Sequence record: PZ379598.1 | Length of the DNA stretch: 40,118 nucleotides | Direction: 5' to 3' (one strand) | DNA from: a phage | Part shown: in pieces, positions 1 to 40,118 of the stretch | How the letters are laid out: every line of letters starts with the position of its first letter | Numbering within the stretch: position 1 is the stretch's first letter | The notes under the pieces: model-generated | The model's input: the letters and a program-made list of their open reading frames with translations, nothing else | Database searches by the model: none | Told to the model about the DNA's origin: nothing | Made by a program: the position numbers and the translations under genes

Positions 1-151
1 AGACCAATAGTCCCTGCCTATCGTCCTTCCCTAAGCCATAGCCACAACCTATCGTTGACCTGAAGTCTTGACCATCGGTCTAACCTTATGATATACTGGG
101 GTAGGGCCTTTGGTCTGGACTGAAAGATGGCCTATGGGGGACTTGAGGTTC
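1..151. repeat. Direct terminal repeat, copy at window start
   Basis: Bases 1-151 are identical to 39968-40118; T7-like genomes carry direct terminal repeats of this size. Confidence 0.9.
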
Positions 152-2624: not shown

Positions 2625-3054
2625 ATAGTCCCTCCAGCATTAGGTCCCGGACAGCGATAGACTCCTCTAAAGTGGGACGTGTTGTTCGCATATAGGCATT
2701 CCCGCGTTTAACCTGAATCCTATAACCATTCTGGTGACGGGTAACGCACTTCACTCCTGTCTTAGAGTCATAATGGCTACCAGTATTCCAAGTGTTTTCA
2801 GCGGCAGTAACGAGCCGTAAGTTACTTAAGGTATTATTGCTAGGGTTCCTGTAGATGTGGTCTATTTGCATACCATGCGGTATAGGACCATTGGTTAGTT
2901 CCCATATCACACGATGGGCCCGCTTACTGCCTAGACTTCGTGTCTGTACTATCCAATATCCCATCCGACTTAATGTTCCCACAGGCTTTCCAGTCCTAAC
3001 GGAGACCAGACCGGATGGACTAGCCGGGTCCACTTTGTAGTAATCACTTAACAC
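2617..3054 (-). CDS. HNH homing endonuclease
   Basis: 145 aa with an HNH core ([41 protein letters not shown]); overlaps the spanin 3' end and the terminase start. Confidence 0.8.
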
Positions 3055-9900: not shown

Positions 9901-10855
9901 TCAGAGGGTCCACACCAGCGCCAATCACACCAGCGGCTAACTGAGCACCAGTCCCAGCCTTGGCCTTCTCTTGGTCCAACTTCTGGTTCTCAAGCGCCAA
10001 GTTAATAAGCTCGGTCAGGTTCTGAGGAGAGCCTCCAGTAATGACTCCGTAATACTGAGGCAAAACACCAGCGTTACGAATCTGGTCTAGCTCCTCACGA
10101 GACCACTTATGGTTGTTCCATCTGGTTGGGTTGAACACATCGCCAATGACATCCAGTGAGTCCTCAGTCTGACCAGCTCGTATAGCCACGCCGACCATAG
10201 AGTTCTTCACTTCAGCTTCTGTAGCCGCACCGAAACCGAACCACGTAGAGCGGTCCTCTTGCTCCTGCATGGTCTCTCCAGTAGCCTTATAGAACATCTC
10301 ACCGAACGATTCGTTGGGAGCTTCAGGTGCTTGACCATCAATGTTCAGACCAGCAGCGGTCGGAAGGTTCTCACCCAGAGCTACTTTAGGTTTAGCCTTG
10401 AGTCCTTCCGTGAGTGCGTCAAATACGTTAGCGCTTACTGGTGGAGTCTTTGGGCTAATGCCATTGAGTGCTCTTGCGACTCCCTTCTGATAGACTTCTG
10501 GGTCGTACCGGGAGCCTGTCTCATGGTAGCCGATAGCCTCAGACAGAGAGGCGAGGACATCATGGTTCGTCAGGTCGATACTTTGTGTTGCTGGAATACC
10601 AGTCGCAGCCACAACAGAGTTGATGTAGGACTGAGTGTCGTTCTCGCTCGGAGGTGCCCATCTGTTGATAATCTTCTCGATAGAGTCATAACCTTGGCGA
10701 CCGTAGCTTTGAAGGGTTTTCGCTAATGCTCTGACCCCAGATTCAGGACTGTCGAAGATAACGAATGCACCATCATCGCCTATAGCACCTTCCCACTGGT
10801 CTTTGGACTTACGGATATTGCCCGGATTTGCGTTCCTTACACCACGTGTTGCCAT
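6968..10855 (-). CDS. gp16: Internal virion (core/ejection) protein D (T7 gp16-like) with a divergent N-terminal domain
   Basis: 1295 aa; long colinear similarity to recalled T7 gp16 from about residue 185 onward (STWFGF, TRWN.H.W..EEL, VTGGSP.NL, VRSPTGMQSGASGK, MENPAIFG, NGDIAIMG.TGKTTK, RAMDLWR). The first ~180 aa do not resemble the T7 transglycosylase domain. Confidence 0.9.
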   Translation of the reverse strand: MATRGVRNANPGNIRKSKDQWEGAIGDDGAFVIFDSPESGVRALAKTLQSYGRQGYDSIEKIINRWAPPSENDTQSYINSVVAATGIPATQSIDLTNHDVLASLSEAIGYHETGSRYDPEVYQKGVARALNGISPKTPPVSANVFDALTEGLKAKPKVALGENLPTAAGLNIDGQAPEAPNESFGEMFYKATGETMQEQEDRSTWFGFGAATEAEVKNSMVGVAIRAGQTEDSLDVIGDVFNPTRWNNHKWSREELDQIRNAGVLPQYYGVITGGSPQNLTELINLALENQKLDQEKAKAGTGAQLAAGVIGAGVDPLTYVPIAGQVGKGGKLVNKMFTVAAQSGALAGVSEMARTSVAGGDAHVAEAILGGALFGGGMTAIADGLGRALGRNTNEFAGPATRLEARETARNVDGQDLSRLPIQEGEQTFSHQGVKFADVPNEPGSVRLEDGSILIGENPLNPKTRQVFDEVIEPERAAAGVNLGGLTEIGLKLLRSENPEIRGVAADLVRSPTGMQSGASGKIGTTASDVFERLRSVDHRFYNDIDDAVTEALKDPYFQTAFWRDSGAFRQDIYQRVSMAIEDGSGNLKAELTPGEMKVYDLLKNQFDAKREMMENPAMFGRPDAQSIFPGSHFKGTYVPHVYSKQMKELYIKELGSPEALQEAIKKSWLTSYASRPEVKKRVDEALLEADPTLTPEGLAAAVDKYANDKAYGISHTEQFERSSVMEENINGLVGLENNSFLEARNLFDSDMSIVLPNGQTFSVNNLREWDMDKIVPAYNRRINGDIAIMAGTGKTTKDMKDLVETMMNKAGDDGKLKGEVSTLRDTLKILTGRARRDGADDAAFATVMRTMTDLSFFAKNAYMGVQNLTEIGGMLARGNVRAMLHGVPIFRDLAFRNKKVGASEIKDLHNVIFGKELDDSIRPSKQDVIDRLRSYSDLSRGTATALGTAKYYTGELAVRSPFTKVLNGTTNYLLDAGRQGFLSDIVEHSLTGSKRKFDDRWLKTAGISDEQWSGIKSLIRESVTRGPDGKYTIKDKKAFSQDPRAMDLWRMGDTIADETLLRPHKLSNMDAKAYGPLAKTVLQFKNFVIKSINGRTMRTFYNATKNNRAIDAALSTVMSMGLAGIYYMAQAHVKAYAMQDGRDRDYLKQALDPTMIGYAALSRSSHLGGPLGVANILGGIAGYEDTKMLRSSILPRSPTEKPERAIAYGAATSDPVMNVVGNFLEQVPAFGYAANVGASAYNLAGYLKADTRVNERDYMTGMYNTLRELVPNDPITQKLLLGTFEEQGIHIKD

Positions 10856-11286
10856 GTCTTTCTCCTCAATATATTTCGTATGGAAACGACGCTTACCCCG
10901 TATAAGGTGGAAAGCTCAGATACTTTTAATGGACTGGAGCGTATTTCCCTAACAGATTCCTCTGTCAGTATAGCTCTGCCTGCTCCACTACCTCTTGCCT
11001 GTCGGCCTCTGGATACCTTATCTGCAATGTTGTCAGCCTGCGTTCCTACTTCAAGGTGTTCAGGATTTATGCATGATGGATTATCACATTTATGCCTAAC
11101 AACATAGCCATCTGGTATTGGCCCCTTATTTATGGAGTAGGAGAGACGATGTGCCATATACTTAACCCTAGCCACCATTATCCTTCCGTATCCTTCTCCG
11201 TCTAAGTGGCCTGTGAATCGGATACAGCCAGACTCTTCAGCTACTGACAGTTCTGCCAGTCTCTCACTGGCTGTCCCGTTCTTCAT
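10837..11286 (-). CDS. HNH homing endonuclease with C-terminal helix-turn-helix-like tail
   Basis: 149 aa; HNH core (GYGRIMV...HRLSYSINKGPIPDGYVVRHKCDNPSCINPEHLEVGTQADN); wedged between the gp15 and gp16 genes. Confidence 0.8.
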   Translation of the reverse strand: MKNGTASERLAELSVAEESGCIRFTGHLDGEGYGRIMVARVKYMAHRLSYSINKGPIPDGYVVRHKCDNPSCINPEHLEVGTQADNIADKVSRGRQARGSGAGRAILTEESVREIRSSPLKVSELSTLYGVSVVSIRNILRRKTWQHVV

Positions 11287-34859: not shown

Positions 34860-37541
34860 TTAAGCGAATGCAAAGTCTGAAGACAAGATGTCTTCGATAT
34901 TCAGTTTACCTTTCTTCGGAAGCTCAGGCAACTTGTCTCTCTGGCTCTCGTGAAGCTGGTATTCAAACTGCTCGTAGAAGTCAAGCAGCACATCGTTGTC
35001 GCGGTATGTCTCGACCATCGTCTCACGGACTCCACGGAACAGATACTCAGCGTCAGCCGGGATGGTCCCGAAGCTATCGTGAATCACTGCGAATGACATC
35101 ACGCCATATTTGCGGTGCGTGTGGACTACAGTCTTGCGGAGGTGGCTACCATCTTGTGAGTGGACGAAGTTCGGGCTAATGCCTGACTCCTGCTTGTGCT
35201 TGTCCAGCTCTTTCTTCGTGCCTTTGTTGACGGTAGGCTGAAGGTTGAATGACCCTAAGAACATCAGGTTCAGACGAGTGGTGTCCTTCTTGCGGTATTC
35301 CTGCCAGACAGGGAAACCATCAGGTGTGACCCAGTGTACCGGAAGACAAGGCTTCAGGATTTCTCCAGTCTTCTTGTCCTTCACTTCAGCAGCAAGCAGC
35401 TTGGCAGCACCCTGAAGCCATTTCATCGCGTCAACCGCAGCAACTACGGTCACACTCACAGCTTCCCAAATCATCTTAGCCATGAAGCGAGATGCTTGGC
35501 TTGGTTCAGTGAACATAGCGCCAGACCCTGAGTCAATCGCTGGCATCACGATGTCCTCGTAAACTTGGTCTGCGAAGCCGTACTCTTTCGACCCGTAGGC
35601 CAGAGTCATGACCGAACGCTTAGTGACCTTTCGTGACATACCGTAGGTCAGCCACTGACGGGCAAGCTCTCGTGTCCCCAGCTTGAGACGCTCGGTAATC
35701 TCACCAGTTTTCTTGTCCTCGTGAGTTACCATCTCGTTGTCCGTACCGTTAACCAGTAGGACTTTAAGCTCCTCCTCAATGCGGTCAGACACGATGCGGT
35801 AGATGTCTTGGACCTTACCGGATGGCGTCAGGTTTACTGCATGTCCACCGATGTGGTCGCGAAGCATAGCGCTGAAGTGCTGAATCCCAGAGCAGGACCC
35901 ATCGAACGCTATCGGCAGCGAGCAGGAGTAAGACAAGCCGTGGTGCATTACGCCAGCATACTCGAAGCAGAACGCTAGGAAGCAGAACGGAGAGTCTAAC
36001 TTGCCCCACCACTCAATGCTATCCATCGGTGCCTTGGCAGCAGCCATGATGTTGTCGTGGTTATCTTCCACCCACTTGATACGCTCCTCGAAGGTGACTT
36101 TATCGACACCCGCGCAGTTTGCACCGTGGACCTTCAGCCATTTGAAACCATCAGCACCAATAGGCTTACCGACTGCCAGAGTCAGAAGACCCTTTTGCAT
36201 GTCGTTACCCTGAGGGTTGAACATCGGCACAGCGTAGACGCGACCGCGCCAGTCCATGTTATACGGGAACCAGATGGCCTTGAACTGAGAGAACTTGTTC
36301 GCTTGGTTGACGATAAAGCTCAGTGACAATCTTCGTGACTGTCTGGCCTTCTCGCGGCGATAGATACCAGCAGCAGCCTTCTTCCATGCCTTGAGTTCTT
36401 CTTCAGTCTCACCCGCATAGTCCTCAGGCTTCAGCGGTTCCATCTGAGGGATGTCATCAATAGGCGTGTTGTTCAGCTTCTCGACCATGTTCACCACTTC
36501 CAGAACCTTCTTGTTCACTTTCCAAGGTGTATTCTGAATGATGTTCACAGCGTCATAGACTTCAGGCATATACACGTCTTCGTAGCGTGCTACCGCAGAC
36601 TTAGACCCTAAGCGAATCAGTGGTAATGGTCTGCGTCCTTTGGCCCAGTACCCACCGCCTACGACACCAGTCCACGGCTTAGGTGGAACGACGCAAGGCT
36701 GGTAGACTGGAGCTATACCCGCAAGGCTGAATCCTCGTTGTGCCATCTTCTTGACCCAGAAGTCTGACAGGTGGACCATCTCAACGTCAGCCGCTGCATT
36801 GCCAGCACCGTAACGCTTAAGCTCGACCAGTTGTGTGGACTGGATGACAATCTCCAGCATCTTGATTCCAACGTGGACAGCCTCGGTCGGACTCCAAGTC
36901 CCCCACGCATCTTCCAGTTGGCCTTGCTCCAGCATGGATGCCTCGACCGCTTGCATGTAGGCTTTCTTGTAGGACGCCCCGGCCCGCTTATTCAGGTTAT
37001 CAGCTATCGCCTTCTTGAAGTGCTCTTTCTCCTTGTCACGGATGCGACCGAAGCGGATTTCGTCCTCAAGTGTGCGACCTATCGCTGAGGCCATCGGTGT
37101 AATCGGTATCCCTTCAGGCTTGACCAGCTTGGAGAGTATGACCTTCAGTATGATAACCGCAGCAGACTCGCAGGAGATGCGCAAAGAGCGGACCTTTACG
37201 GCCTTCTCTTCAGTGCTCAACATGGTGAACGCTACGCTCGGACGAGAGGTTGACAGCTTCCCGTCTGGACCTTCATGCCACTCCTTGACGGCTTGCGCAA
37301 TCTTAGGGACCAGAGTCTGCATCAAAGGCTTGGCGACCTGATTGTCTGCCAGTTCCCCTCGCTCAGTCTGTCTCTCAAGGTTCTTGATGAAACGTCGCTC
37401 GCCTTCAGTGTATGCCTCGTGCTCAAGCTGAAGCTGTTTGACTGCAAGGTCTTGCCCGTAGTGGTCAGCCAGTAGGTTAAACGGCTCAATGGCGTTCGAC
37501 ACATCAGAGAAGTCGTGCTTGTCAATAGAGATGACGCTCAT
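34860..37541 (-). CDS. gp1: Single-subunit DNA-directed RNA polymerase (T7 gp1-like)
   Basis: 893 aa; colinear with recalled T7 RNAP from the N-terminus (DFSD...PFN.LADHYG, LEHE.Y..GE.RF) through the C-terminal FAFA. Confidence 0.97.
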   Translation of the reverse strand: MSVISIDKHDFSDVSNAIEPFNLLADHYGQDLAVKQLQLEHEAYTEGERRFIKNLERQTERGELADNQVAKPLMQTLVPKIAQAVKEWHEGPDGKLSTSRPSVAFTMLSTEEKAVKVRSLRISCESAAVIILKVILSKLVKPEGIPITPMASAIGRTLEDEIRFGRIRDKEKEHFKKAIADNLNKRAGASYKKAYMQAVEASMLEQGQLEDAWGTWSPTEAVHVGIKMLEIVIQSTQLVELKRYGAGNAAADVEMVHLSDFWVKKMAQRGFSLAGIAPVYQPCVVPPKPWTGVVGGGYWAKGRRPLPLIRLGSKSAVARYEDVYMPEVYDAVNIIQNTPWKVNKKVLEVVNMVEKLNNTPIDDIPQMEPLKPEDYAGETEEELKAWKKAAAGIYRREKARQSRRLSLSFIVNQANKFSQFKAIWFPYNMDWRGRVYAVPMFNPQGNDMQKGLLTLAVGKPIGADGFKWLKVHGANCAGVDKVTFEERIKWVEDNHDNIMAAAKAPMDSIEWWGKLDSPFCFLAFCFEYAGVMHHGLSYSCSLPIAFDGSCSGIQHFSAMLRDHIGGHAVNLTPSGKVQDIYRIVSDRIEEELKVLLVNGTDNEMVTHEDKKTGEITERLKLGTRELARQWLTYGMSRKVTKRSVMTLAYGSKEYGFADQVYEDIVMPAIDSGSGAMFTEPSQASRFMAKMIWEAVSVTVVAAVDAMKWLQGAAKLLAAEVKDKKTGEILKPCLPVHWVTPDGFPVWQEYRKKDTTRLNLMFLGSFNLQPTVNKGTKKELDKHKQESGISPNFVHSQDGSHLRKTVVHTHRKYGVMSFAVIHDSFGTIPADAEYLFRGVRETMVETYRDNDVLLDFYEQFEYQLHESQRDKLPELPKKGKLNIEDILSSDFAFA

Positions 37542-37614
37542 ACTTAAAGTCCTTGTTATTAGTCTTTCACTTAAAGTCTCTTTGGTCTTTCACTTGGAGT
37601 CTTAGACCTTGAGT

Positions 37615-37633
37615 CCTATAGTGATAGTTAAGT
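37615..37633 (-). promoter_or_regulatory. Phage RNAP promoter directly upstream of the RNAP gene
   Basis: Plus-strand CCTATAGTGATAGTTAAGTC, about 75 nt upstream of the RNAP start codon; the leader contains two copies of AGTCTTTCACTT. Confidence 0.7.
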
Positions 37634-37638
37634 CAGAA

Positions 37639-37965
37639 TTACTTGCATATCAGCGGGTTAGCGTGGAGATGACTGAAGTCACCATGAGTCGTGTGCTTGA
37701 TGGTTGACCGTTGGTCTATCGCCTTCCATCCTGAGACTAAAAGTTTACCATCGTCAGTGATTGGTCGTCCACCATACACCAGACACATTAGTTCGGACTT
37801 ATGGCCCTCAGCCCGTAGTCTTGCTTGCAGTACCCGGTCCCGCTCCTGCTGTTGACGTGCGGAGTGACTTGACGTTCCGTGACGATACCCGGTAGCCAGT
37901 AGGCTTAACATTTGCATGTCTGCGTCCATAGAGTGTACCAGATTAATCCCGTATGACTTGTTCAT
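37639..37965 (-). CDS. Hypothetical early protein (108 aa)
   Basis: ORF whose ATG overlaps the upstream stop (TAATG); contains His-rich segments (HGTSSH, HTTHGDFSHLH); no confident family assignment. Confidence 0.6.
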   Translation of the reverse strand: MNKSYGINLVHSMDADMQMLSLLATGYRHGTSSHSARQQQERDRVLQARLRAEGHKSELMCLVYGGRPITDDGKLLVSGWKAIDQRSTIKHTTHGDFSHLHANPLICK

Positions 37966-38168
37966 TACAGTTTGCTCCCAAGTGTTGCTATATCCCAGAC
38001 GTTCGCTAAGTTACGCATGAATCGTCCGTTAGGTTGACGTACAGTCCAGCTACCCAGACGTACATATTTGAATTTGTAGACTTTACGCGCTTTGTTGATG
38101 TCTCTCACCAGCACGTAGGCGATAAGTCCATAGCCTATGGCTATCAATAGTGCGATACTCATAGTCAT
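37965..38168 (-). CDS. Small membrane protein (67 aa), early region
   Basis: MTMSIALLIAIGYGLIAYVLV... with one predicted transmembrane helix; its ATG overlaps the stop of the upstream 34-aa ORF (ATGA). The track reports a 124-aa ORF (37965..38339) starting at a GTG with no ribosome-binding site. Confidence 0.55.
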   Translation of the reverse strand: MTMSIALLIAIGYGLIAYVLVRDINKARKVYKFKYVRLGSWTVRQPNGRFMRNLANVWDIATLGSKL

Positions 38169-38269
38169 AAGCCCCATAACAGTTGAGTAAGGACCGGTAG
38201 TTTGCAGACTAGAGTAAACATTCCCCACACTACGAAGCCTGAGATAGTCCAGATGATTGCAGTGCTCAT
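38165..38269 (-). CDS. Micro membrane protein (34 aa), early region
   Basis: Hand-found ORF MSTAIIWTISGFVVWGMFTLVCKLPVLTQLLWGL with AGGAG 6 nt upstream of the ATG; hydrophobic throughout; in the +1 frame relative to the 124-aa track ORF. Confidence 0.5.
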   Translation of the reverse strand: MSTAIIWTISGFVVWGMFTLVCKLPVLTQLLWGL

Positions 38270-38401
38270 AGTTAACTCCTATCAATGTAAGTGGTAATCT
38301 TTGAGGCCACCTATCAGTCGATGACCTCTCGTCTATCACTCAGTACCATCACGTCAGTGTTATGGTCAAGCTATGATTTGGTTCTCTCCTGTTTATTTAG
38401 G

Positions 38402-38629
38402 TTACTCGCCGTCTCCTTCTGTAAGGCTATCGTCTATTAATTCAAATTTACCGTTTGAGTGTTGGATAGCCTCTTGTCCGCAATGGTCGCAAACCACCAG
38501 TTTATCGAACCCGTCAAACTCGTCACCTGCTACGCAAGAAAGTACGAATTTATGATTGGTGCATACTTCTTGCGTTTCACCGAAAATTGCTCGAAAACCT
38601 TTGGTTATGGCACCAGTGATTGTGTTCAT
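38402..38629 (-). CDS. Hypothetical Cys-rich early protein (75 aa, possible zinc ribbon)
   Basis: ORF with GAGAGGGAAG upstream; four Cys (C-x8-C ... C-x2-C) and an acidic C-terminus; preceded by the same 21-bp leader motif as the Ocr-like gene. Confidence 0.65.
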   Translation of the reverse strand: MNTITGAITKGFRAIFGETQEVCTNHKFVLSCVAGDEFDGFDKLVVCDHCGQEAIQHSNGKFELIDDSLTEGDGE

Positions 38630-38841
38630 ATCTTCCCTCTCAGTTGTTAATGACTATCAGTCAGGCCACCAGCATTGATGACCTGTAGTCTGTCACTTAG
38701 CGTGTAAACTGTCGTGTATACGCTTGCGTCTCCTGTAGACCACTTTCAAGAGACGCATAGCCCAATCGTGGTCTAACTGCCCGGTCTTGACCATAAGCCG
38801 GGCGTTAGTGACGTGGTGCTGGCAGAGGCCATAAGTTACCA

Positions 38842-39345
38842 TCACTCGCAGTCCTCAGCAGCAGGGTCAAACACTACGTTATCATTGATGTCTTCCACCT
38901 GAAGGTGGCGACCTATCACATAGTTGACCTTGGCACATGCAGTAGCGACCTCAAGAGCTACAGCTTGCACAATTATTGCGCCTGTTTTAGCGTCAACTAC
39001 CCAATATTCATCCTCTTCGTCTGCCTCTTCATCCTCAAACCAGACTACATCCAAGCTATTAGACACGTCGTTATAAAGTGCCTCATAGATGCGAGCTTGT
39101 AGGATACGCGTTACGTCCTTGGTTTCAGGTATCATCCCAGAGTCTTCGAACTCGTTGTCTATACCATCAGCAGCCATCACCGTAAAAATCTCGTGGTAAT
39201 AGTGTGGAACCTGACCGTCTACGACCTCATGCAGCGCATCGCTGTAGTCGTCATCTTGAGTCAGGTGGTCGTACTGAATACGCTCGATAAATGCCTCAAC
39301 GGTTGCAGCCAGCAGCTCATAGTATGCGTTAGCATTACGTTCCAT
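38842..39345 (-). CDS. ocr: Ocr-like DNA-mimic anti-restriction protein (T7 gp0.3-like) with C-terminal extension
   Basis: 167 aa; residues 1-110 align with recalled T7 Ocr (NIRYDD..D.DD..DA.H...[35 protein letters not shown]); very acidic; about 50 extra C-terminal residues. Confidence 0.85.
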
Positions 39346-39379
39346 AGTTATATCCTCTCAAAGTTAATTATGTGTTAAT

Positions 39380-39470
39380 GACTATCAGTCAGGGCCTTCA
39401 GATGTAGACTCAAAGGCCCTGTAGTTAGTCGCTATCGGCGCACATTAAGAGTTTATCCAGATTGTTAAAG
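39380..39470 (-). promoter_or_regulatory. R0.3-like RNase III processing region in the early leader
   Basis: Minus strand contains CTCTTTAACAATCTGGATAAACTCTT, closely matching the recalled T7 leader CTCTTTAACAATCTGGTAAATAGCTCTT, followed by a perfect 9-bp hairpin CAGGGCCTT...AAGGCCCTG. Confidence 0.6.
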
Positions 39471-39535: not shown

Positions 39536-39574
39536 TGTGGTACATATTACTTTAAGTCGTTACTGCCTGTCAAC
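39536..39574 (-). promoter_or_regulatory. Host sigma70 early promoter (T7 A3-like)
   Basis: Minus strand TTGACA - 18 nt - TAATAT followed by GTACCACATCGAAAC, paralleling the recalled T7 A3 promoter (TTGACA ... TACGAT GTACCACATGAAAC). A weaker TTGACT-containing candidate lies at about 39675-39715. Confidence 0.65.
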
Positions 39575-39789
39575 TACTTTCTGTCGGTTGCCTGTTGTTC
39601 GTATGTCTTACAGGCTGACTACTTAACCGGACCGGTCCGGCGTCTTCACTATCCGGTTGTTGCCGTGTCGTGTTGACGGAAGCTATTAGGCCATAGTCTG
39701 GACCTATAGTCAATAGGTAATTCGAAATAATATTGATTAAGCTATCGTCGGCCCCATGGTGTAAGAGGATATAGTCTTTGACTAACATG

Positions 39790-39960
39790 TCTTAGACCTT
39801 AAGTCTATAGCCTTGTGTCTATTAACTGTAGGTCTATGACTGTAGGTGTTGGTGTCTTATGGTTGAGACTGTAGGTTAGTGAGACTGTAGGTTATGACTT
39901 ATGGTTGTGAGAGGTAGGCTGTGACCTATGGTTGTGACTTATGGTTATACAGATAGAGAC
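39790..39960. repeat. Array of short repeats next to the terminal repeat (CTGTAGGT and TTATGGTT units, about 4 copies each)
   Basis: Tandem short repeats lie between the early promoter region and the terminal repeat, analogous to the CCTAAAG-type repeats at the T7 left end. Confidence 0.55.
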
Positions 39961-39967
39961 TCAAAGA

Positions 39968-40118
39968 AGACCAATAGTCCCTGCCTATCGTCCTTCCCTA
40001 AGCCATAGCCACAACCTATCGTTGACCTGAAGTCTTGACCATCGGTCTAACCTTATGATATACTGGGGTAGGGCCTTTGGTCTGGACTGAAAGATGGCCT
40101 ATGGGGGACTTGAGGTTC
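39968..40118. repeat. Direct terminal repeat, copy at window end
   Basis: Identical to bases 1-151; the repeat may extend beyond the window edge. Confidence 0.9.

Follow-up and report, generated by a model that had tools for sequence, protein, structure and literature searches.

Early gene cluster of a Kayfunavirus close to LM33_P1, with a long Ocr-family protein and further small early genes

The phage sequence PZ379598.1 (40,118 bases, analysed as a whole and referred to below as the window) is a complete T7-like genome, with genes read on the minus strand and an exact direct terminal repeat of 151 bp (window positions 1-151 and 39968-40118). The subject of the present study is its early region, a cluster of six small genes at 37639-39345, which precedes the RNA polymerase gene (gene 1) and starts with an extended homolog of the T7 protein Ocr. 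The region is probably a normal early (class I) operon, that of a Kayfunavirus very closely related to Escherichia phage LM33_P1, composed of gene cassettes headed by RNase III-like hairpins, with gene products acting in the roles proposed below. It is a real and mostly ordinary region; the Kayfunavirus version is known from many earlier sequences, in which the products are annotated as 'Ocr-like' and as hypothetical proteins.

Along its entire length, the left 2.6 kb of the genome (window 40118-37500) shares 99.2% identity with LM33_P1 (NC_031937), and the left-end sequence matches 245 phage records, nearly all of them K1F-like phages from Escherichia, Salmonella, Enterobacter and Citrobacter; thus, this is the early region of a phage species already published. 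Annotations of LM33_P1, 101136BS1 and EPr2 give the genes in the same order. The limits assigned to the cluster in an initial annotation of the window coincide with gene boundaries, 37639 being the final base of the p108 stop codon and 39345 the ATG of the Ocr gene, and all the open reading frames (ORFs) that it names are present, on the minus strand. The features of the region are as follows:

39373..39418, minus strand: R0.3-like hairpin with the arm CCTGACTGATAGTCATTAACA, upstream of Ocr
38842..39345, minus strand: Ocr-long, 167 amino acids (aa), ATG at 39345; core (residues 1-113), acidic linker and extra C-terminal domain (114-167)
38693..38842, minus strand: orf49, 49-aa gp0.4 homolog, coupled to Ocr
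38645..38690, minus strand: R1-like hairpin with a 21-nt arm (ACAGGTCATC...GGTGGCCTGA), heading the cys75 cassette
38402..38629, minus strand: cys75, 75-aa acidic protein with invariant Cys and His residues
38289..38335, minus strand: R0.5-like hairpin (GAC..AGGTC...GTGGCCT...GATTAyCACTT), heading tm34-tm70-p108; near-identical in K1F and JSS1
38165..38269, minus strand: tm34, predicted 34-aa single-pass membrane peptide
37965..38177, minus strand: tm70, 65-70 aa, probable start at 38162-38177; predicted N-terminal transmembrane helix and basic tail
37639..37965, minus strand: p108, 108-aa basic protein
37613..37633, minus strand: K1F-type phage promoter between p108 and gene 1, the 3' limit of the early cluster
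37541..34860, minus strand: gene 1 (RNA polymerase), downstream of the phage promoter

Gene order and coding status

LM33_P1 and K1F share with the window the order Ocr (167-169 aa), 49-aa gp0.4-like protein, small membrane protein, gp0.6/0.37, gp0.38, phage promoter and gene 1; K1F differs in the absence of cys75, in another small membrane protein (55 aa, phrog_7319) and in a stop codon within the gp0.38 homolog. The likeness to the class I region of T7 includes the location at the left end after the host promoters, Ocr as the first gene, a coupled gp0.4 and a membrane peptide after an R0.5-type hairpin, whereas the window lacks the gp0.7 kinase and homologs of gp0.5 and gp0.6, contains the extra cys75 cassette and carries p108 in the gene 0.7 slot. 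On the T7 precedent, the early region would enter the cell ahead of the rest of the genome and be transcribed by host RNA polymerase from the left-end promoters, and RNase III would cut the transcript into Ocr-long plus the gp0.4 homolog, cys75, and tm34 plus tm70 plus p108.

The phage promoter TTAACTATCACTATAGGAC at 37613-37633 is one of eight exact copies of ACTATCACTATAGG (K1F-type core) in the genome. The promoter before gene 1 is kept in LM33_P1, 101136BS1, EPr2, K1F and JSS1, and phage CR8 has an annotated promoter at the equivalent site, whereas in T7 the position directly upstream of gene 1 is occupied by an E. coli promoter (C). A phage promoter placed directly before the polymerase gene implies positive autoregulation of that gene. 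At the left end of the genome, positions 39845-39950 contain short imperfect direct repeats resembling GTAGGTTATGACTTATGGTTGTGA, plus two copies of TGAGACTGTAGGTTA; the annotated repeat arrays at the left end of CR8 are comparable.

Comparisons with orthologs show all six genes to be protein-coding and under purifying selection at the protein level. The ratio of nonsynonymous to synonymous substitutions (dN/dS), calculated by the Nei-Gojobori method with orthologs in up to eleven relatives, lies between 0.05 and 0.57 across the six genes, except for one short, low-count comparison (the Ocr tail against phage 1RS, 1.33). The values are 0.11-0.29 for the Ocr core and mostly 0.17-0.56 for the faster-evolving Ocr tail, 0.12-0.51 for orf49, 0.05 for cys75 compared with Kagunavirus XY1 (dS 0.64, dN 0.03), 0.24 for tm34 (one informative comparison, with CR8), 0.08-0.57 for tm70 and 0.05-0.38 for p108. 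Every one of the six genes has either a Shine-Dalgarno-like sequence or a stop/start overlap. The initial annotation had left room for these ORFs being untranslated, and one might suppose that some of them are chance ORFs over conserved RNA or promoter elements. This is extremely unlikely for the six genes, given dN/dS values well below 1 against several diverged relatives, the ribosome-binding sites or coupled starts, and the retention of protein sequence where the DNA has diverged, as between cys75 of the window and of XY1; all of these features indicate real genes. The same supposition is likely to hold for a neighbour of the cluster, a 72-aa 'gp0.1' ORF, and for the 5' extension of a 124-aa ORF over the R0.5-like hairpin.

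The 72-aa ORF (39570-39788, minus strand), annotated in LM33_P1 as 'homolog to Gp0.1 in K1F', is probably not protein-coding: its dN/dS values are 0.43-1.0, and it runs into the early promoter region and the TTGACA-18-TAATAT match located there (39573-39544). The 5' part of the 124-aa ORF (MIDERSSTDRWPQRLPL...), at 38270-38339 on the minus strand, matches phrog_36394 and is an annotated gene in phage 1RS; since it covers the conserved R0.5-like hairpin, this 'family' probably reflects RNA-level conservation or an annotation artefact.

Ocr-long, its C-terminal tail and the gp0.4 homolog

Judging by profile searches and alignments, Ocr-long is a true Ocr-family protein. It matches Pfam family PF08684 over residues 8-94 (E=7.4e-29, 100.6 bits with a cut-off of 25) and phrog_2568 (E=1.6e-52), and an alignment with the T7 Ocr chain 1S7Z (117 aa) pairs its residues 11-113 with 11-116 of that chain (E=1.4e-24). 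The identity to T7 Ocr (gp0.3) is 48% over the full length of the latter, with the blocks IF(T/S)VMA..GID..FEDSG and ILQARIYE kept. The core of Ocr-long contains 31 Asp and Glu residues per 113 and has an isoelectric point (pI) of 4.05, compared with 34 per 117 and pI 4.05 in T7 Ocr; the full Ocr-long, also with a pI of 4.05, contains 40 Asp and Glu residues. Ocr blocks type I restriction-modification and the bacteriophage exclusion (BREX) system (PMC7261183), binds host RNA polymerase (PMC7064336) and is sensed by PARIS, Ronin and EcoR22I (bioRxiv 10.1101/2023.04.06.535777); by analogy with T7 Ocr, the acidic core of Ocr-long would be expected to act as a DNA mimic that inhibits both type I restriction-modification and BREX. 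The long Ocr gene bears the label 'protein kinase' in GenBank records LT594300, MZ398247, OM355495 and OM937123, which is an annotation error, since Ocr contains no kinase domain.

The alignment spans the entire T7 Ocr chain, and residues 114-167 of Ocr-long (54 aa) are therefore extra, in agreement with the approximately 50 additional C-terminal residues given in the initial annotation. They compose a C-terminal domain with a hydrophobic core that is missing from the Ocr proteins of T7, CR8 and JSS1. The part of the gene encoding the tail (38845..39006, minus strand) translates as YWVVDAKTG...VVFDP..EDCE. The long form is not special to this genome: K1F gp0.3 has 169 aa and is 81% identical to Ocr-long, and the tail was found in 72 records, always at the C-terminus of a Kayfunavirus Ocr. 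The tail gave no match in Pfam or the PDB, and a homolog search with the tail alone returned two fragments only. AlphaFold 2 modelling of Ocr-long, based on a three-row alignment, resulted in a mean predicted local distance difference test (pLDDT) score of 50.3, with approximately 56-74 for the tail, for which a β-β-α-β-β arrangement was predicted. A fold search of the PDB with this model did not retrieve 1S7Z, T7 Ocr being a banana-shaped helical dimer that mimics bent B-DNA, and returned a self-family match and noise only; as the model missed T7 Ocr, fold searches of Ocr-long carry no weight.

The tail might be an appendage without a function of its own, that is, a fused former ORF or a tolerated read-through on a functional core. 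Consistent with this, the close relatives JSS1 and CR8 have a short Ocr of 110-111 aa (IMEP24 has a different, longer tail), and the tail evolves faster than the core. It can also be split off or lost: in three metagenome contigs (Logan, runs SRR33193082-84), the reading frame shifts at a G run that has gained one G (+1), leaving a core of 117 aa and, overlapping it, a separate tail ORF of 59 aa. In a natural deletion variant, with the microhomology GAAGAGGC at the junction, Ocr residues 1-106 continue directly into cys75 residues 52-75, and the tail, the gp0.4 homolog and most of cys75 are gone. An appendage of this kind is nevertheless unlikely, as the tail is kept throughout the 72 records; the eight aligned long homologs have a conserved hydrophobic pattern and an invariant VEDxND-VVFDP...EDCE end, and the dN/dS values of the tail correspond mostly to purifying selection. 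The compact β-β-α-β-β unit, predicted with low confidence, also speaks for a domain with its own function. We therefore regard the tail as a lineage-specific add-on domain that is separable and dispensable but under selection.

The list of genes in the initial annotation was incomplete, since it omitted orf49 (38842..38693), the gene directly following Ocr. Profile comparisons identify orf49 as a T7 gp0.4 homolog, and the overlap of its ATG with the Ocr stop codon (TGATG, 38842-38846) indicates translational coupling to Ocr. orf49 matches phrog_5058 (E=4.4e-25); orf49 and the T7 gp0.4 family (phrog_7202) cross-match in both directions (E=9e-5 and 4.5e-4), and hhalign comparison of the orf49 family with gp0.4 gave a probability of 89% (E=2.3e-6, 40 of approximately 50 columns). 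A close homolog of orf49 (51 aa, from a metagenome contig) carries the precomputed family PF26807, Phage_T7_GP04; the Pfam release searched directly does not contain this model, and T7 gp0.4 itself matched nothing there. T7 gp0.4 resembles orf49 in its length of about 50 aa, in its location right after Ocr with overlapping codons (T7 0.3/0.4 at 1278) and in the motif YGL...G...W..AM..LK..Y, but the identity is only about 35%, and orf49 is much more basic (pI 10.6). T7 gp0.4 is reportedly an FtsZ inhibitor, as described by Kiro and colleagues (Kiro et al.) in 2013; by analogy, orf49 is a probable FtsZ inhibitor too.

The cys75 gene and the hairpin-headed cassettes

The Cys-rich 75-aa protein was described correctly in the initial annotation, with cysteines at positions 23, 32, 47 and 50 (C-x8-C...C-x2-C). 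Residues C23, H26, C32, C47 and C50 are invariant in seven of the seven family sequences and provide conserved putative metal ligands (C23-x2-H26, C32 and C47-x2-C50) within the family core EVCT-HKFVLSC--GDEFDGFDKL-VCD-CGQE, which is preceded by a variable N-terminus and followed by an acidic tail. This pattern suits a small zinc-binding domain, and the protein is probably metal-binding. cys75 belongs to no described zinc-finger family, the search having returned only single-member sub-threshold hits (TRASH 0.0047, ADK_lid 0.075, RIM2a_ZnF 0.22), and it had no PDB match. It does match phrog_32657 (E=1.7e-53).

Only six clusters of cys75 were found among 5.8 billion proteins, and the gene is present in 57 phage records. 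Kagunavirus siphophages (XY1, Golestan, K1ind1, Bas73/75 and others) carry it at about 92% amino acid identity, and the nucleotide homology between the window and XY1 is limited to the ribosome-binding site, the cys75 ORF and 26 nt beyond. The gene occurs in three contexts. In the window, it is located between orf49 and the R0.5-like site, with a hairpin of its own ahead of it; in phage 1RS, it lies between tm70 and p108, coupled to tm70; and in Kagunavirus it is the first gene after a sigma-70-like promoter, divergent from a repressor gene. A search of 5,426 complete E. coli genomes gave no match to cys75. The only 'plasmid' with cys75, CP088689.1 (44,086 bp, from an E. coli blood isolate; 92% identity), is as long as a Kagunavirus genome and may be a phage genome deposited as a plasmid. 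To judge from this distribution and from the dN/dS value, cys75 is a mobile early accessory gene under very strong constraint. It resembles phage 'morons' in being a self-contained unit, found at three insertion points in two unrelated phage groups; unlike morons, cys75 of the window has no promoter and terminator of its own and is located behind a duplicated RNase III-like hairpin inside an operon. Since the gene is early in two unrelated groups of virulent phages and is very strongly constrained, a host-directed accessory factor would be expected, and our best guess is a host-specific counter-defence or takeover factor.

The hairpins that head the cassettes contain an internal loop and are located just before ribosome-binding sites. 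Folding and side-by-side comparison indicate a similarity in sequence and shape to the T7 RNase III sites R0.3, R1 and R0.5; the z-scores of the folds are -3.85 for the hairpin upstream of Ocr, and -1.89 and -2.11 for the others. An exact 21-nt repeat, CCTGACTGATAGTCATTAACA, is common to the hairpins before Ocr and cys75. In LM33_P1 (775-1073), 101136BS1, IMEP24 and 1RS, a gene encoding an 81-84 aa 'gp02' protein (MKHLSTITNRNEVFVNTKGYAWIQLKEM...) is located between the early promoters and Ocr, as one further unit of this hairpin-headed type. The window has no gp02, and the deletion junction relative to LM33_P1 lies exactly in the repeated arm CCTGACTGATAGTCAYTAAC (window 39373-39393). In K1F and JSS1, which lack cys75, the gp0.4 homolog is followed directly by the R0.5-like site. 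Because the gp02 junction falls exactly in the repeated arm, the hairpin-arm repeats appear, from a handful of genomes, to act as recombination points for the gain and loss of early cassettes.

The tm34-tm70-p108 module, the missing kinase and anti-defence roles

The genes tm34, tm70 and p108 overlap or abut, with the p108 start overlapping the tm70 stop as TAATG, and their products, two membrane peptides and one basic soluble protein, would come from a translationally coupled module. The maximum 19-residue Kyte-Doolittle hydropathy is 1.94 for tm34 and 2.35 for tm70, which agrees with the two small membrane proteins of the initial annotation. tm34 has an AGGAG ribosome-binding site and the same position as T7 gp0.5; it gave no PHROG match, and its homolog in Caroctavirus CR8, gp0.705, is 47% identical. 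tm70 (pI 10.8; phrog_2385, E=1.9e-32) corresponds to K1F gp0.6/gp0.37, is 92% identical to K1F gp0.6 and is present in 215 phage records. It is among the best-conserved early proteins, being 80% identical to CR8 gp0.71 with a dN/dS of 0.08, compared with an identity of only 64% for the N-terminal 180 residues of RNA polymerase. Neither tm70 and T7 gp0.6 nor tm34 and T7 gp0.5 are homologous, and the likeness is positional only. CR8 carries the same trio (gp0.705, gp0.71 and gp0.38) ahead of gene 1.

p108 contains eight His residues (7.4%) and has a pI of 9.3. The initial annotation was right in calling it a His-rich protein of 108 aa but not in calling it an orphan: p108 is gp0.38 of EcoDS1 and CR8 (phrog_7066, E=7.1e-46) and occurs in 224 phage records and 144 protein clusters. 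The orphan label, given to other proteins of the cluster as well, fits neither tm70 nor the 75-aa protein, in view of the record counts above. tm70 and p108 co-occur in approximately 215-224 records. The forms of p108 span 83 to 139 aa; the N-terminus is variable, and the core (residues 27-108, with the motif HT(T/S)xGDF(S/T)HL) is conserved, including R42, L46, R49, GKLL and Q85 and the invariant T92, G95-D96-F97 and H99-L100. An exhaustive HMMER search of 1.84 billion representatives with the p108 profile yielded only 14 clusters (50% identity), which consist of small phage proteins except for a lone 1118-aa match, a repeat-protein artefact. A His/Cys metal site at the C-terminus was considered and rejected: H101 and C107 are not invariant, so that only the HTxGDFxHL motif holds. 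The remote-homology searches proposed in the initial annotation for the 75-aa and 108-aa proteins (profile, Pfam and PDB) yielded no homology, and the structure prediction proposed for p108 was not usable (AlphaFold 2 mean pLDDT 49.6, with an Arg-rich helix predicted at residues 34-53).

The K1F genome (NC_007456) contains at 2208-2468 an unannotated p108/gp0.38 homolog with an in-frame stop at codon 13 (directly after MKTVYINRPSIR). The stop could reflect a pseudogene, a laboratory mutation or a sequencing error; taken as it stands, it indicates that p108 is dispensable at least there. The literature search found no paper on the function of gp0.35, gp0.37 or gp0.38. The tm34-tm70-p108 module most likely has a non-essential host-takeover or exclusion function.

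The absence of the gp0.7 kinase, pointed out in the initial annotation, was confirmed by a tblastn search of all 40,118 bases (best E=1.2) and by a whole-proteome comparison (no match at E<=1e-3), but it is not peculiar to this genome. A kinase is neither annotated nor found in any of the ten Kayfunavirus early regions examined (LM33_P1, 101136BS1, EPr2, K1F, JSS1, pO91, Ro45lw, KE18, 1RS and IMEP24), and gp0.7 itself occurs in 913 records from other genera, the matches listed including no Kayfunavirus. The papers on a 'JSS1_004 kinase' deal with a Salmonella phage; Escherichia phage JSS1 is a different phage and lacks a kinase. Besides gp0.7, T7 inhibits host RNA polymerase through gp2 and gp5.7, and the genome encodes homologs of both (44% and 77% identity, respectively); host transcription shutoff can still come from these proteins. 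No homologs of T7 gp1.2, gp4.5, gp5.5 or gp5.9 were found in the genome by tblastn.

A replacement of the host-transcription shutoff half of gp0.7 by p108, alone or together with tm34 and tm70, has several points in its favour. p108 is basic, with a predicted Arg-rich helix, and occupies the slot of gene 0.7 immediately before gene 1; the C-terminal domain of gp0.7 has been described as a basic domain that binds nucleic acids (PMC12345140), and gp0.7 of CR8, located beside a p108 homolog, is kinase-only (242 aa, without the C-terminal shutoff domain). We regard such a replacement as very doubtful, however. No kinase domain is present in p108, nor could homology to the shutoff domain be detected. 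That p108 might be a diverged shutoff domain, an idea prompted by the slot, by a BLAST hit with E=0.71 and by the CR8 protein, was rejected on the results of hhalign and a hidden Markov model (HMM) search: the comparison of the p108 family with eight gp0.7 C-terminal domains gave a probability of 0.2%, and searching the T7 genome and T3-like early regions with the p108 HMM returned no match. The gp0.7 end motif AI..G..L.IDK.LD..L.G is not present in p108. The homolog in the K1F reference is interrupted by a stop, and, with gp2 and gp5.7 homologs present, shutoff does not need p108. A non-essential takeover or exclusion function of the module remains the preferred reading.

The early region was initially described as the usual home of anti-restriction and takeover genes; this is sound in general and, for the window, borne out by homology for Ocr and gp0.4 only. 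The further step of regarding the Ocr tail, cys75, p108 and the membrane peptides as dedicated anti-defence factors directed against specific immune systems is possible but doubtful. Expression would be early, from the genome end that enters first; cys75 moves between unrelated virulent phages at a dN/dS of 0.05; the highly variable N-terminus and differing lengths of p108 have a modular character; the region gains and loses cassettes; and counter-defence genes as well as triggers of abortive infection are known among the neighbours of Ocr (bioRxiv 10.1101/2023.04.06.535777). On the other side, searches of Pfam, NCBIfam, PADLOC and the PDB revealed no likeness to a known anti-defence protein or fold, orf24, the Ocr neighbour of that study, is a different protein, and the conservation of tm70 and the p108 core is that of core genes, not of fast-evolving genes of an arms race. 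A bolder version, in which the RNase III-site hairpins double as recombination sites that swap counter-defence genes, cys75 is a zinc-binding immune inhibitor common to podophages and siphophages, and the Ocr tail is a second anti-defence or sensor-evasion module, appears rather improbable.

The reading of the region as a standard early operon with the roles proposed above has its own weak points. The Ocr tail, cys75, tm34, tm70 and p108 had no matches in Pfam, NCBIfam, PADLOC or the PDB. The analysis establishes the gene content, homologies, conservation, purifying selection and cassette structure of the region, and transcription, processing and all biochemical activities are inferred; the AlphaFold 2 models of p108 and Ocr-long (mean pLDDT 49.6 and 50.3) are poor, and the fold searches were uninformative. 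RNase III cleavage is suggested by the likeness to T7 only, Rfam contains no family matching the hairpins, and two of the three z-scores are modest (-1.9 and -2.1). The natural variant without the tail, orf49 and most of cys75, together with the K1F allele of p108 with its in-frame stop, indicates that parts of the cluster are dispensable, and their roles may consequently be minor. An anti-restriction or takeover role for these proteins is nonetheless reasonable from their position and, for cys75, from its mobility.

Elsewhere in the genome, the region 10843-11265 (minus strand) resembles T7 HNH endonuclease genes, gp2.8 and gp7.7 both matching there, and 2749-2928 (minus strand) is matched by T7 gp3.8, also an HNH endonuclease. 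By their similarity, these loci point to homing-endonuclease insertions in the late region.

For a T7 specialist, the cluster offers useful experimental leads and nothing surprising. The long Ocr is a natural variant for asking whether an appended domain alters the response of restriction, BREX or the Ocr-sensing systems PARIS, Ronin and EcoR22I. Kayfunaviruses are used in phage-therapy work on extraintestinal pathogenic E. coli (ExPEC) and K1 strains. If the Ocr tail, cys75, p108 and the membrane peptides do act on defences, they would extend the small set of early effectors known from the T7 group (Ocr, gp0.4, gp0.6 and gp0.7) and would help to explain how Kayfunaviruses manage without the broad-spectrum gp0.7 kinase.

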